A DNA stretch of 40,711 nucleotides from a virus: UHGV virus genome UHGV-1370040. One strand, given 5' to 3'. Each line of letters starts with the position of its first letter. Positions within the stretch are counted from its first letter, which is position 1. The notes under the pieces are model-generated. The model saw nothing but the letters and a program-made list of their open reading frames with translations. It had not been told where the DNA came from and did not search any database. The position numbers and the translations under genes were made by a program. Shown here piece after piece: positions 12,405 to 27,408 of this stretch.

Positions 12405-12434
12405 ATTATATCGAACTTTAGTTCGTGTTGTCTA
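12405..12434 (-). promoter_or_regulatory. promoter with the CGAACT-NN-AGTTCG operator (12412-12425) in its spacer
   Basis: Seen directly in the sequence. The same palindrome recurs at 27385-27398. Confidence 0.5.
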
Positions 12435-12664
12435 TCAAGAAATATAAAATAATACAAAAAAATGGGTACTTTTTGGGTATGTCGGTAATGAAAAAAGCTA
12501 AAACCTTTATTTATTAAAGGTTTTAGCTTTTTAATAAAGAGCCACCTGCCAGCTTCATAGATAATTATTCAAGAATAGTGCTGTTTAATTAAAAACAATT
12601 CTATATGTTTTAATATATACATCAATATAACAATTTAGATATACTTTGGGTAATTTTTGGGTAT

Positions 12665-13807
12665 TTACAAAATATCTTTGTATTTGTTTTCATATTTTTC
12701 TTTGTTCTTTTTTCTATTTGCTTCAGTAGCTGATGCGTATTCATATGACTGTATTATCTCTTTATGTCCTAGCTGTGTTTTGATATATATTGGGTCAGCT
12801 TCAGCTAGGATTAATAAGTCAGAACGGGCATGTCTAAAACTATGAGATGAAATTCTTTCAATATTTGCTAGTTCACATGTTTCTTTTATATATTTATTCA
12901 CAGATGAATTTGAGATGGGCCATGAATTTTTTTTACTAACAAAAACAAAATTTTGGGGATTACGTAAATCTCCTCTCAATATTTTTTTCTTTTGTTCCAT
13001 TTCATATTTTTTTAAATAATAGAAAAGAGAAGAAGGGACATCGATATTTCGAACACCTGCTTCTGATTTTGTAGGGCCAATTCTATACTGGCCAGCATCA
13101 TACTTATATGCATTTTTTATCTTAATAACTTCGTTACTTTCATCAATGCTATCCCAAGTCAACGCAGCAACCTCTTGATAACGAGCTCCAGTATATAGTT
13201 GTACTAAAATGAAGTATTTACTTGTGGTATTTTCACGAGATAATAAAGCTTCTTTAAATTTAGTTAAATCATCAATAGATATGGTTTTATTTGATTTCTT
13301 TTCTGGTACTTGGCCAGTTAACTTTATATTTCTTGTTGGATTTGAATGAATATATTGCATATCCAAAGCTTCTAAAAACATAGATTTTACAATGTTATGT
13401 CTGTTGCTTACAGTCTCAATTGATAGTCCTTTTTCATTGATATTGCCAGGTTTTGCAAGCCAGTTAATCCATTGCTGATATTTGACTTTGGTGACGCCTT
13501 TTAGCAATTGTTTGTCCCCAAAGAAATCATTTAAATTCTTTCTTGTTAGAGCTATTTTTTGCATACGTCCAGCAGATACTTTATTCTTTTTAAATGTATC
13601 AACCCAAATATCATAAAAATCTAAAAGTTTAATTGCTTCGGTGTTTTCACCACGCATAATTTTTGATTTAAATTCTGTTTCGGCATCTCTGCAAGCTTTC
13701 TTAGTAGGTCTAGTAATCATTTTATTTTTCCATTCATTTGTAATGGGGTCTTTATATCTAAATCTTAACTGCCATTTTCCATTAGCTAATTTCTTTGGTT
13801 CTGCCAT
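12665..13807 (-). CDS. int: tyrosine recombinase / phage integrase. True start is ATG at 13805-13807 (MAEPKKLANGKWQLRFRYKDP) after RBS GAGAGGTTGG; the ORF track over-extends to 13903
   Basis: N-terminal arm-binding-like pattern. C-terminal SHSFRHA (HxxR) and Y in QSYEYAS are the catalytic box. Sits at the left end of the prophage next to cI/ImmA. Confidence 0.9.
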   Translation of the reverse strand: MAEPKKLANGKWQLRFRYKDPITNEWKNKMITRPTKKACRDAETEFKSKIMRGENTEAIKLLDFYDIWVDTFKKNKVSAGRMQKIALTRKNLNDFFGDKQLLKGVTKVKYQQWINWLAKPGNINEKGLSIETVSNRHNIVKSMFLEALDMQYIHSNPTRNIKLTGQVPEKKSNKTISIDDLTKFKEALLSRENTTSKYFILVQLYTGARYQEVAALTWDSIDESNEVIKIKNAYKYDAGQYRIGPTKSEAGVRNIDVPSSLFYYLKKYEMEQKKKILRGDLRNPQNFVFVSKKNSWPISNSSVNKYIKETCELANIERISSHSFRHARSDLLILAEADPIYIKTQLGHKEIIQSYEYASATEANRKKNKEKYENKYKDIL

Positions 13808-13992
13808 AAATACCAACCTCTCGGATTTTTTTAATTTAAATACATTTAAGAACGATTTTTTATTGAATATGTTATAAGTAAGTATTAAATTATCGTATAT
13901 CATAAAGGTGGATACGAATATACGTTCGTGTTTTGTGATAAAAAGAAAAACCCGAAGGTTTCTCTCTTTGTTAATAAAATAATAAGAAGATA

Positions 13993-14856
13993 TTAATAAT
14001 CAATAATTTCTACAAGTCCACTATCTGCACTTTGTGGAGTTATGTGTATTTCCACATTAGCTTCTCTTTTTGCTCCGTATGCATTTACTATAGTAGCACT
14101 TACTTTTTGATACCATTTACCATCTTTTTGCGTCCATGGTTGGATGACACCGATAATTGAATGCATTTTGCTTCCTTTATAAGGATACATATCATTAAAT
14201 TGATGTTTAGCTAAAGTATCTAAGACGGTTTGTTGTTCTAAGGTTGGCTCATCTGCTAGCTTAGTAATGTCATTAGTATTTTTATCTTCGCTCGGTAAAG
14301 TATTAGTAGCTACATCAGACTTCGCTTCAGTACTTACTTCTTTTTTCTCAGCTGCATCAGATTGTTCATTATCTTGGCTACTACTATTAGAAACATCAGA
14401 GTTGACTGTTTTTTGTTTGTTAGTTTCAGTACTTGATACTGGATTTTTCATATATTCTTGAAAATCTTTTTCATTTAAAAATCTAACAACAAAATCTTTG
14501 TCGGCAGTTTCGAATGTGAGAGTATCTCCCTTTTTAAGAGATACTTTTTTCTTGTTTCCCACTCCGTATAAGTCATGGTTACTATTTTCTCCGCCTGATT
14601 TGACGGTAATAAGAACTATGCTCGATTTATCATCTAGTTGAGTTAATACAGCATAGTAATCTCCAGGATCAATATTTTTTCCAACTGAATATTCCCCTGA
14701 TGCAACAAAGTCTTTTGAATTCGGTTGTTTAACTGTGCTGTTAGATTGACTGGTTGACTTTTCAGTACCTTTATTATCATTATTGCCCGAACAAGCAGTA
14801 AGTAGTGAAATACCACAAACACAAATCAAGCCTAAACTAATTAATTTTTTCATCAT
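13993..14856 (-). CDS. surface lipoprotein between int and the immunity genes (Ltp-like superinfection-exclusion candidate)
   Basis: Signal peptide with lipobox LLTAC (MMKKLISLGLICVCGISLLTAC|SGN). S/T/N/D-rich linker. The same locus (int / lipoprotein / cI) holds Ltp in Streptococcus thermophilus TP-J34. Confidence 0.6.
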   Translation of the reverse strand: MMKKLISLGLICVCGISLLTACSGNNDNKGTEKSTSQSNSTVKQPNSKDFVASGEYSVGKNIDPGDYYAVLTQLDDKSSIVLITVKSGGENSNHDLYGVGNKKKVSLKKGDTLTFETADKDFVVRFLNEKDFQEYMKNPVSSTETNKQKTVNSDVSNSSSQDNEQSDAAEKKEVSTEAKSDVATNTLPSEDKNTNDITKLADEPTLEQQTVLDTLAKHQFNDMYPYKGSKMHSIIGVIQPWTQKDGKWYQKVSATIVNAYGAKREANVEIHITPQSADSGLVEIIDY

Positions 14857-14884
14857 AATTCCTCCTTAAAAATACATGCGTAAT

Positions 14885-15343
14885 TTAATTGATAATAAAG
14901 CGCAAACACTTTTCAATATCTGAATAAAATTCTTCTTCTAATCCAAAAAAACTAGCGATAGTACATATATTTACACTTTCATCTGATGCTACATGATATA
15001 AATAATATTTACAAAGTAAAAAAATTGCACCATTATCAGCTTCATATTCCATTTTAGATCTACTATACCTATTAGCATTATAAAATGAATTAATCCCGTC
15101 ATGTTCAGTTATATGTATTAGCTCATGAGCACAAACAAAATAAGAATAATTACTTCCGTTTAGAAATGAAGCAATAAATATTGTGTTAAGTTCAGGAACT
15201 GCTAATCCATGATAACCAATGGGAAGCTTAGTAGTATAAACTAATTCAATATCAAGATGGTGAGCAATTTCAAATGGATCGTAACTTCCAGTCCAAGAAA
15301 ATATATCTTCAAGATCGTAAATTACTGATTTCAAAGAAATCAC
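14885..15343 (-). CDS. immA: ImmA/IrrE-family zinc metallopeptidase (anti-repressor protease)
   Basis: HEXXH motif CAHELIHITEHD. About 150 aa. 4-bp ATGA overlap with the upstream XRE repressor gene, the ImmR/ImmA arrangement. Confidence 0.8.
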   Translation of the reverse strand: MISLKSVIYDLEDIFSWTGSYDPFEIAHHLDIELVYTTKLPIGYHGLAVPELNTIFIASFLNGSNYSYFVCAHELIHITEHDGINSFYNANRYSRSKMEYEADNGAIFLLCKYYLYHVASDESVNICTIASFFGLEEEFYSDIEKCLRFIIN

Positions 15344-26141: not shown

Positions 26142-26144
26142 GCA

Positions 26145-26348
26145 ATGCTAAGTTATCCAGAAGTTTATATTTTAGGGCGACAAGTCGATGGCGTTTATGT
26201 TGAATACCTGCGCGGATCAGAGCAAGCCGATTTATTTTTCGATTATGCGATAGCTTGTGATGAAAGAAATCATATGAATAAAACCAATACAAAAGATGGC
26301 GAATGGAGAATTTTAAAATACGGGAGGCCAATTACATTGGAGTTTTAA
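26145..26348 (+). CDS. hypothetical early protein
   Basis: ORF. Confidence 0.4.
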   Translation: MLSYPEVYILGRQVDGVYVEYLRGSEQADLFFDYAIACDERNHMNKTNTKDGEWRILKYGRPITLEF

Positions 26349-26737
26349 CTTATTGCAATTTTTTTACAATAACTAGCCGATTTTTTGCAAACAAAAAGCC
26401 AGCCGACCAATGGCTGACTAATGTGGTAGTTAGCACTTTTCCCAAGTAAAGTGCTAATAGTGCCAACAAATAAGGTTGACATTGTGTCTCTGGTGGAGAC
26501 AGGAACTATCGATAACTGTTTTCCGCCAGTTATCATAGAAAAGGAGAAATTTATTTCAGAAATAAAATCCCCAAGAAAGTTAATATGATTATATCATGAG
26601 TAAATGTATTTGAAAATACTATCTCATAGTACGTATTGTAAAAAGTTTATTTAGTAGAAAATAAAAAAAGCCAGATTGCTCCGGCTGTGAGAAATATTTT
26701 CGACATAGTTATTATACCACAAAAGGAGCGATTTCAC

Positions 26738-27154
26738 TTGATTAAATTGCTAAAAGAAGTAGATTTTCGACAAACAAAAGCGAATGCTAGAAATGTGTTG
26801 AAGAATTTTAGACGTTTAGAGCGAATAGCTGGTCGCTCTTTGATAGATTTAAAATCACCAATTATTACAGATATGCCTAAAAGCCAAAGTCATGGGAACA
26901 AAGCAGAAGATGCGCTAGTACAATTAGCAGATGCAGAAGCAGAAAGAGACGCAATTTTATCTGCGCTTATGGCATTAAGCCTAACTAGCAGACAAATTTT
27001 GCATTATAGTTTCTGTGTGCAGGATCATTACTCTAATTACAAGATTGCTAGAGAAGTCGGCTATTCCGAAAGAAGTATTCAACGCATGAAATCAGAAGCT
27101 TTGATTGAATTTGCTGAAGCTTATCGAAATGGAAAAATAATTGCCTATAAATAA
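26738..27154 (+). CDS. arpU: ArpU/RinA-family late transcriptional activator; TTG start at 26738 after AAAAGGAG (the ORF track starts earlier at 26687)
   Basis: LKNFRRLERIAGRSLIDLKSP......SLTSRQILHYSFCV...IAREVGYSERSIQRMKSEALIEFAEA has a sigma region-4-like C-terminus. About 138 aa. Located upstream of terS. Confidence 0.75.
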   Translation: MIKLLKEVDFRQTKANARNVLKNFRRLERIAGRSLIDLKSPIITDMPKSQSHGNKAEDALVQLADAEAERDAILSALMALSLTSRQILHYSFCVQDHYSNYKIAREVGYSERSIQRMKSEALIEFAEAYRNGKIIAYK

Positions 27155-27379
27155 AATTTTGGCGGTTTTTTGGCGGAAAGTTGGCGGTTTTTATACGAAT
27201 TTGAGTGCTAATATAGTAATATCGAAAGTCAAAGAAATGGACACATTACACACTTTCTCGTTTAGTCACCGTTCACTTTGACTTTCGATGGTCACTTGCA
27301 GACTATACGTTCTCAAAAAACAAAAAGTGAGGTGAAATCCCTCCCTTATTTTTCTACAGGTTTGCAAGGGATAACACTC

Positions 27380-27408
27380 TTGATCGAACTCTAGTTCGGG
27401 TGTATAAT
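27380..27408 (+). promoter_or_regulatory. strong sigma-A promoter (-35 TTGATC, 17-nt spacer, extended -10 TGTATAAT) with palindrome CGAACTCTAGTTCG (27385-27398) in the spacer
   Basis: Read directly. Drives the 27530-28970 cassette. Confidence 0.6.

Follow-up and report, generated by a model that had tools for sequence, protein, structure and literature searches.

The temperate Enterococcus faecalis phage genome UHGV-1370040, analysed here over its full 40,711 nucleotides (nt; the window), carries two palindromes that we read, with a probability of roughly 0.8, as SOS boxes, that is, as putative operators of the host repressor LexA and not of a phage regulator. Each lies within the predicted promoter of an accessory transcription unit: a single gene for a protein of 82 amino acids (aa) beside the integrase gene (int), and a Rex-like two-gene cassette (320 and 156 aa). 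DNA damage probably turns on both of these unrelated accessory units at once. The general arrangement, LexA boxes in promoters of a phage, is known and has good precedent, and the two sites are genuine and not a product of chance. Modest novelty lies in the cargoes: a putatively SOS-gated Rex-like cassette whose structured leader is new, and a family of proteins with an oligonucleotide/oligosaccharide-binding (OB) fold that is unannotated and SOS-linked. The two sites and their promoters are as follows.

12405–12434, minus strand: promoter of the 82-aa gene, TAGACA-18-TATAAT, 11/12 in the consensus scan; the box takes up the spacer, stopping 1 nt short of the –10 element
12412–12425, unstranded: putative SOS (Cheo/LexA) box 1, CGAACTTTAGTTCG, 10/10 to CGAAC-N4-GTTCG
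27380–27408, plus strand: promoter of the cassette, TTGATC-17-TATAAT, 10/12 in the consensus scan; the box lies within the spacer
27385–27398, unstranded: putative SOS (Cheo/LexA) box 2, CGAACTCTAGTTCG, 10/10 to CGAAC-N4-GTTCG

Both palindromes lie exactly where the first-pass annotation of the window had placed them, as two copies of one operator with 6-nt arms around a 2-nt centre. Its statement that the window holds no other copy stands for this 6+2+6 reading: CGAACTNNAGTTCG matches these two sites alone, even with two mismatches allowed, and exact matches (zero mismatches) are given by 0 of 100 dinucleotide-preserving shuffles of the window. The statement does not stand for the reading CGAAC-N4-GTTCG, under which a third site with one mismatch appears at 13915–13928; three sites are then found where 0.39 are expected, a number reached by 1 of 100 shuffles. 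The placement of the palindromes inside promoter spacers is borne out by a consensus scan that independently recovers both promoters (consensus-scan matches only, not mapped transcription starts), with the palindrome between the –35 and –10 elements each time. The extended –10 element proposed for site 2 has to be dropped: TGTATAAT is not canonical, and the promoter scan reports no TG element. The count of TCGAACTNTAGTTCG that the annotation had suggested returns at least 120 scattered matches in viral contigs, about the chance level for a collection so large.

In both Bacillus subtilis and Staphylococcus aureus, LexA has as its operator the SOS or Cheo box, CGAAC-N4-GTTCG (PMC9578287, Table 1; PMC10584840), and the two sites agree with it at 10 of 10 positions. 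They resemble the boxes of those two LexA regulons in consensus, in overlap with the core promoter, and in having conserved arms around a variable centre; they differ in that phage accessory genes rather than repair genes stand under the box, and in that the host is E. faecalis. Across the relatives that have a box, the 5-nt arms are kept and the central 4 nt are free, and the box goes with each cargo from phage to phage, from one genomic slot to another and into other genera. Enterococci encode LexA.

At the position of site 1, an SOS box is present in 24 of the 25 IMG/VR relatives with upstream sequence, as well as in IME197, EFC-1 and phiFC1, always in the layout TAGACA, 4 nt, CGAAC-N4-(A/G)TTCG, 1 nt, TATAAT. 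Most of these copies have one arm mismatch (ATTCG for GTTCG), their N4 reads ATAC, GTAC, GTTA, GAAA, ATGC, ATAT or TAAA, and the sixth base (T/A) of the proposed 6-nt arms is unconserved. This pattern of arms and centre is what a LexA box should show, and is not to be expected of a 6+2+6 operator. Homologues of 36–42% identity on the chromosomes of Latilactobacillus, Levilactobacillus and E. timonensis have (C/A)GAAC-N4-GTT(C/T)G directly before TATAAT.

Box 2 travels with the cassette. Homology with the phiFL phages and IME197 extends from arpU as far as about 27371, just upstream of the cassette promoter, and the same slot in those phages holds tRNA genes or other cargo, without the box. In most relatives of the cassette, down to 41% aa identity, a GAAC-N4-GTTC core is found within the –35/–10 spacer, at –142 to –144 from the start codon where measured, with N4 reading TCTA, GTTA, TTAT, TGGC, GTTC, ATAT or GTAA. 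They were found in E. faecalis, E. faecium, E. hirae, Carnobacterium divergens and metagenomes, amid unrelated flanks, in a slot that runs from an ArpU/sigma-like gene to the terminase gene or in one that follows the lysin gene. One core mismatch is seen in L048 and in another relative (contigs L078 and L079).

The product of the first unit was characterised by fold, family and genomic context.

12135–12383, minus strand: 82-aa protein, predicted SSB/PriB-like with an OB fold; phrog_15227, a family without annotated function

The 82-aa protein is confidently modelled with an OB fold of the SSB/PriB type, and in this predicted fold resembles the single-OB-fold, single-stranded DNA (ssDNA)-binding proteins SSB and PriB. 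It differs from them in standing outside the SSB and tRNA_anti Pfam families (of 46 family members, one alone has a match to PF01336, which falls short of the cut-off at an E value of 0.005), in having no C-terminal acidic tail, and in conserved residues that are the family's own (G7, C36, G60, N63 and Q67, and the motif GHxNKRNQ); a sequence search of the family against the PDB gave no match. Loci of the family were sought with a 12-sequence subset as seed, the full 46-sequence alignment being too divergent. In Latilactobacillus fuchuensis (L067, 391–2613) the homologue is the first gene of an operon and is directly followed by a Y-family (IMS/impB) polymerase gene, apparently split into two open reading frames; a Y-family polymerase gene is a classic SOS gene. 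In Facklamia languida (L072, 2492–4632) a weaker relative abuts uvrC, with no recognisable box upstream. Homologues beside these two genes point to an unannotated family of small, DNA-damage-linked proteins in the Lactobacillales, as judged from gene neighbourhoods. The protein is about 87–94% identical across phages whose repressors are unrelated to that of the window phage, and because of this near-identity, together with the chromosomal contexts of SOS type, we favour a generic DNA-damage function such as ssDNA binding.

Several observations weigh against the LexA reading and its extensions. The consensus is that of B. subtilis and S. aureus, from which the E. faecalis operator may differ, and a literature search for an E. 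faecalis LexA box found nothing specific. The N4 centres at the two sites, TTTA and TCTA, are unlike the preferred ATAT-type centre of B. subtilis boxes. The box is degenerate or absent in L037 and in the E. durans, E. lactis and E. ratti homologues at site 1, and is barely recognisable in L077 at site 2. As to the extensions, the RexA-like assignment of the 320-aa protein, made at fold level only, comes from one fold match to a medium-confidence model, and the consensus scan reports no promoter beside the third box at 13915–13928. There are three other accounts of the sites or of what they control. That the palindromes are chance matches or simple terminator-like hairpins without an operator role deserves almost no credence: a terminator scan does flag 12412–12425 as a 5-bp stem with a 4-nt loop, but neither site is followed by a convincing run of T, not one exact match arises in the 100 shuffles, and a generic hairpin has no need to keep the same arms at the same promoter position across unrelated contexts and genera. 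Scarcely more probable is the account of the first-pass annotation, in which a dimeric helix-turn-helix (HTH) protein of the phage (cI, Cro or the product of 16915–17166) binds both sites and controls a single lysogeny-expressed module. The phage does encode several HTH proteins, and the 6+2+6 palindrome is found at these two promoters only. Its likely immunity operators, however, are of another kind: the palindrome AGATAC-N5-GTATCT occurs in five copies at 15753–16108, in the cI–cro region, a count matched by no shuffle, and no copy lies near either SOS box. Moreover, conservation is limited to the 5-nt LexA arms and does not extend to 6-nt arms, and the box stays with the 82-aa gene in phages with an unrelated repressor and at non-phage chromosomal loci in other genera. 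What remains of the proposed common dimeric regulator is that the two promoters very probably share one repressor and should co-vary; that repressor is most likely host LexA and not an HTH protein of the phage. Expression in lysogeny would be the opposite of what LexA control predicts, namely a promoter that is off in the unstressed lysogen and on after DNA damage. Nor are the units parts of one module split by the phage backbone. Unit 1 is present in IME197, EFC-1 and phiFC1, while the arpU–terS slot of IME197, phiFL1A, phiFL1C and phiFL2A carries other cargo without the box, and the 37 unit-1 and 6 unit-2 contigs found in IMG/VR have none in common. Since the units are distributed independently, the shared operator is explained by a shared host repressor and not by the ancestry of a split module.

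The remaining alternative accepts the LexA boxes and makes the 82-aa protein an SOS-triggered induction factor, either an antirepressor or an activator of the M78/ImmA-type protease, comparable to Sar of SPbeta and phi3T or Tum of coliphage 186. The cI repressor of the window phage is a 125-aa HTH_3 protein without a cleavage (peptidase) domain, paired with an M78/ImmA-like protease (14885–15343), and such a pair needs some link to the SOS signal; the 82-aa gene is small and is the clearest LexA-boxed single gene of the phage; and small antirepressors under LexA control are established in Bacillus phages (bioRxiv 10.1101/2025.11.27.690993). The antirepressors known there are specific to their cognate repressor (same source), whereas the 82-aa protein does not pair and co-vary with a cognate repressor and remains, as noted above, nearly the same protein in phages with unrelated ones. 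Its homologues also occur in chromosomal, non-prophage contexts beside a Y-family polymerase gene or uvrC, its gene lies in an accessory zone beyond the lysin gene and next to AbiD or TIR genes, and its predicted fold is that of SSB and PriB. We therefore regard an induction factor as unlikely, though less so than the two accounts above. The comparison with Sar, Tum and the P1 promoter of GIL01 holds for the general arrangement, a LexA box on a phage promoter that couples expression to damage; the window phage departs from it in a cargo that is the same protein across phages with unrelated repressors and has chromosomal homologues, and in a putative LexA gate that also covers the Rex-like cassette and possibly int.

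Under LexA control, the two units would behave as follows. A LexA dimer bound to the box within the spacer of a sigma-A-type promoter would keep RNA polymerase off, such that both units would be silent or low in an unstressed lysogen. Upon DNA damage, activated RecA would promote the self-cleavage of LexA, and both promoters would fire together, with a promoter for int possibly joining the same response. The cargoes are unrelated and independently mobile, and each brings a putative SOS box with it. Unit 1 codes for a small protein with a predicted SSB/PriB-like OB fold, whose family is linked to SOS boxes across the Lactobacillales; unit 2 is a RexA/RexB-like two-gene module behind a structured leader that would sequester its ribosome-binding site.

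The second unit comprises, downstream of its promoter:

27415–27529, plus strand: conserved structured 5' leader, about 115 nt long, that separates the promoter from the 320-aa gene
27530–28492, plus strand: predicted RexA-like protein, 320 aa, with similarity at fold level only
28500–28970, plus strand: membrane protein, 156 aa, of RexB-like size and topology, with four hydrophobic segments
28976–28999, plus strand: intrinsic terminator closing the cassette

The link of the cassette to Rex is at the level of fold and architecture only. The 320-aa protein is modelled with the fold of lambda RexA (split globular and dimerisation domains), and its adjacent downstream partner resembles lambda RexB (144 aa) in having four predicted transmembrane segments at similar spacing, with hydropathy peaks at 19–35, 52–68, 99–115 and 130–146 in the 156-aa protein and at 9–25, 50–66, 84–100 and 117–133 in RexB. 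Wherever the contig of a relative reaches far enough, the first gene is followed by one for a protein of 148–162 aa. By sequence, nothing connects the 320-aa and 156-aa proteins with RexA and RexB in Pfam, PADLOC, PHROGs, a PDB profile search, hhalign or BLASTP: the hhalign comparison with RexA/RexB gives a probability of 0.4%, the BLASTP comparison with RexB a non-significant E value of 1.5, and a fold search of BFVD returns uncharacterised proteins only. The cassette thus differs from lambda RexA/RexB, and from the Rex-like pairs of actinobacteriophages and of the Pseudomonas putida prophage P1, in having no detectable sequence similarity to them. It differs in organisation as well: known Rex systems are co-transcribed with the repressor (from PRM/PRE in lambda, and likewise in P. 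putida P1), whereas the cassette lies 12 kb from cI as a separate unit between arpU and terS, with a predicted LexA-boxed promoter, a structured leader and a terminator of its own. RexAB exclusion acts through membrane depolarisation, an activity that is putative for the window pair.

The leader folds with a minimum free energy of –32.7 kcal/mol (z –5.6). A covariation analysis of nine diverged sequences (RNAalifold with pair counts; relatives L047–L053, L077 and L078) supports 27 pairs, 91% of them paired and 10 with compensatory changes, a result (91%, 27 pairs) that 0 of 500 shuffles reach and that compares with 45–58% for slid controls. In the predicted structure, a UCCUU element complementary to the Shine-Dalgarno sequence pairs with the AAGGA(G) ribosome-binding site, and a long-range stem encloses a terminator-like hairpin followed by U8. 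No Rfam family matches the leader; it may represent a cis-regulatory RNA of a new kind or, alternatively, a short RNA induced in the SOS response. An internal promoter after the leader terminator (27481–27509) was considered and set aside as weak and inconsistently present in relatives. It is possible, though we hold it only tentatively, that the cassette is an unrecognised Rex-like abortive-infection pair of Enterococcus and related phages that is gated twice, by LexA on the promoter and by a leader RNA with a hidden ribosome-binding site and an internal terminator, and that the 82-aa protein belongs to an unannotated SOS-regulon family of SSB/PriB-like proteins of 80–100 aa in the Lactobacillales, which would act with translesion polymerases and would themselves have been captured by phages.

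A near-invariant stretch precedes the cassette. Positions 27155–27371, with three TTGGCGG repeats (27160–27188) and about 210 nt downstream of arpU, are shared across phiFL1A, phiFL1C, phiFL2A and IME197, hold an inverted repeat with 14-bp arms (ATCGAAAGTCAAAG ... CTTTGACTTTCGAT), and probably represent a late promoter, dependent on ArpU, together with its leader. Directly after this stretch comes the slot for variable cargo, which in other phages contains tRNA genes or a long tRNA-like insert.

The third box lies upstream of the integrase gene.

12665–13807, minus strand: tyrosine integrase, with the probable start MAEPKK...
13915–13928, unstranded: weaker SOS-like third box, CGAATATACGTTCG, with a 9/10 match, lying some 108 nt upstream of position 13807, the probable int start

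All eight integrase relatives that were found have this box as well, at –120 to –122, even one of 67% identity with diverged flanks; this conservation tentatively suggests SOS control of int. A BLAST search with the region upstream of int gave no match among GenBank phages.

The remaining features of the window concern its layout. From its start, which lies inside the tape-measure gene, the order is tape-measure gene, tail genes, lysin, tRNA-Met, AbiD/Abi_2 and the 82-aa gene, then the tyrosine integrase, cI (HTH_3) with its M78 protease partner, cro, replication genes and ArpU, and finally the cassette, tRNA-Lys, terminase and head genes; the phage is related to phiFL1, phiFL2, phiFL3, IME197, EFC-1 and phiFC1. 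Joining the end of the window (40579–40711) to its start (1–2846) restores a single stop-free tape-measure frame of 992 codons, and this uninterrupted frame across the ends indicates that the window closes into a circle and makes up a complete phage genome, 40.7 kb in size, in the attP form. A prophage left boundary at about 12.1 kb, as the first-pass annotation had inferred, is therefore not tenable: the genome is circular, and in it lysin, AbiD, the 82-aa gene and int follow one another without a break. The 82-aa gene occupies a similar place in IME197 and EFC-1, with accessory genes (AbiD, TIR) on one side and int on the other, and the mapped attP core of phiFC1 falls between the 82-aa gene and int. 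The AbiD/Abi_2 abortive-infection gene of the window phage (11074–12036) adjoins the 82-aa gene and has no SOS box of its own, and EFC-1 carries a TIR-domain gene in the same slot; because of this exchange at one position, the accessory zone beside attP is, by its gene content, a hotspot for defence genes. Between the promoter of the 82-aa gene and the 3' end of int, a direct repeat, TGGGTAnTTTTTGGGTAT, occurs at 12463–12480 and 12647–12664, around a perfect 18-bp bidirectional terminator hairpin (12492–12532), and the repeats are candidate arm-type sites of the integrase within attP.

For the biology of this phage, the analysis replaces a hypothetical phage-specific regulator with a concrete candidate, host LexA. 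It predicts that SOS-inducing drugs, among them fluoroquinolones and mitomycin C, would turn on the putatively membrane-acting Rex-like module, the small ssDNA-binding-type protein and possibly the integrase in E. faecalis lysogens. If the two-step gating is true, the Rex-like module would be armed, or disarmed through a short SOS-induced RNA, only upon DNA damage or prophage induction. The results also offer a first functional handle on phrog_15227, on the pair of 320-aa and 156-aa proteins and on the leader RNA, and indicate that sequence-based resources (Pfam, PADLOC and PHROGs) miss these Rex-like modules in Firmicute phages.

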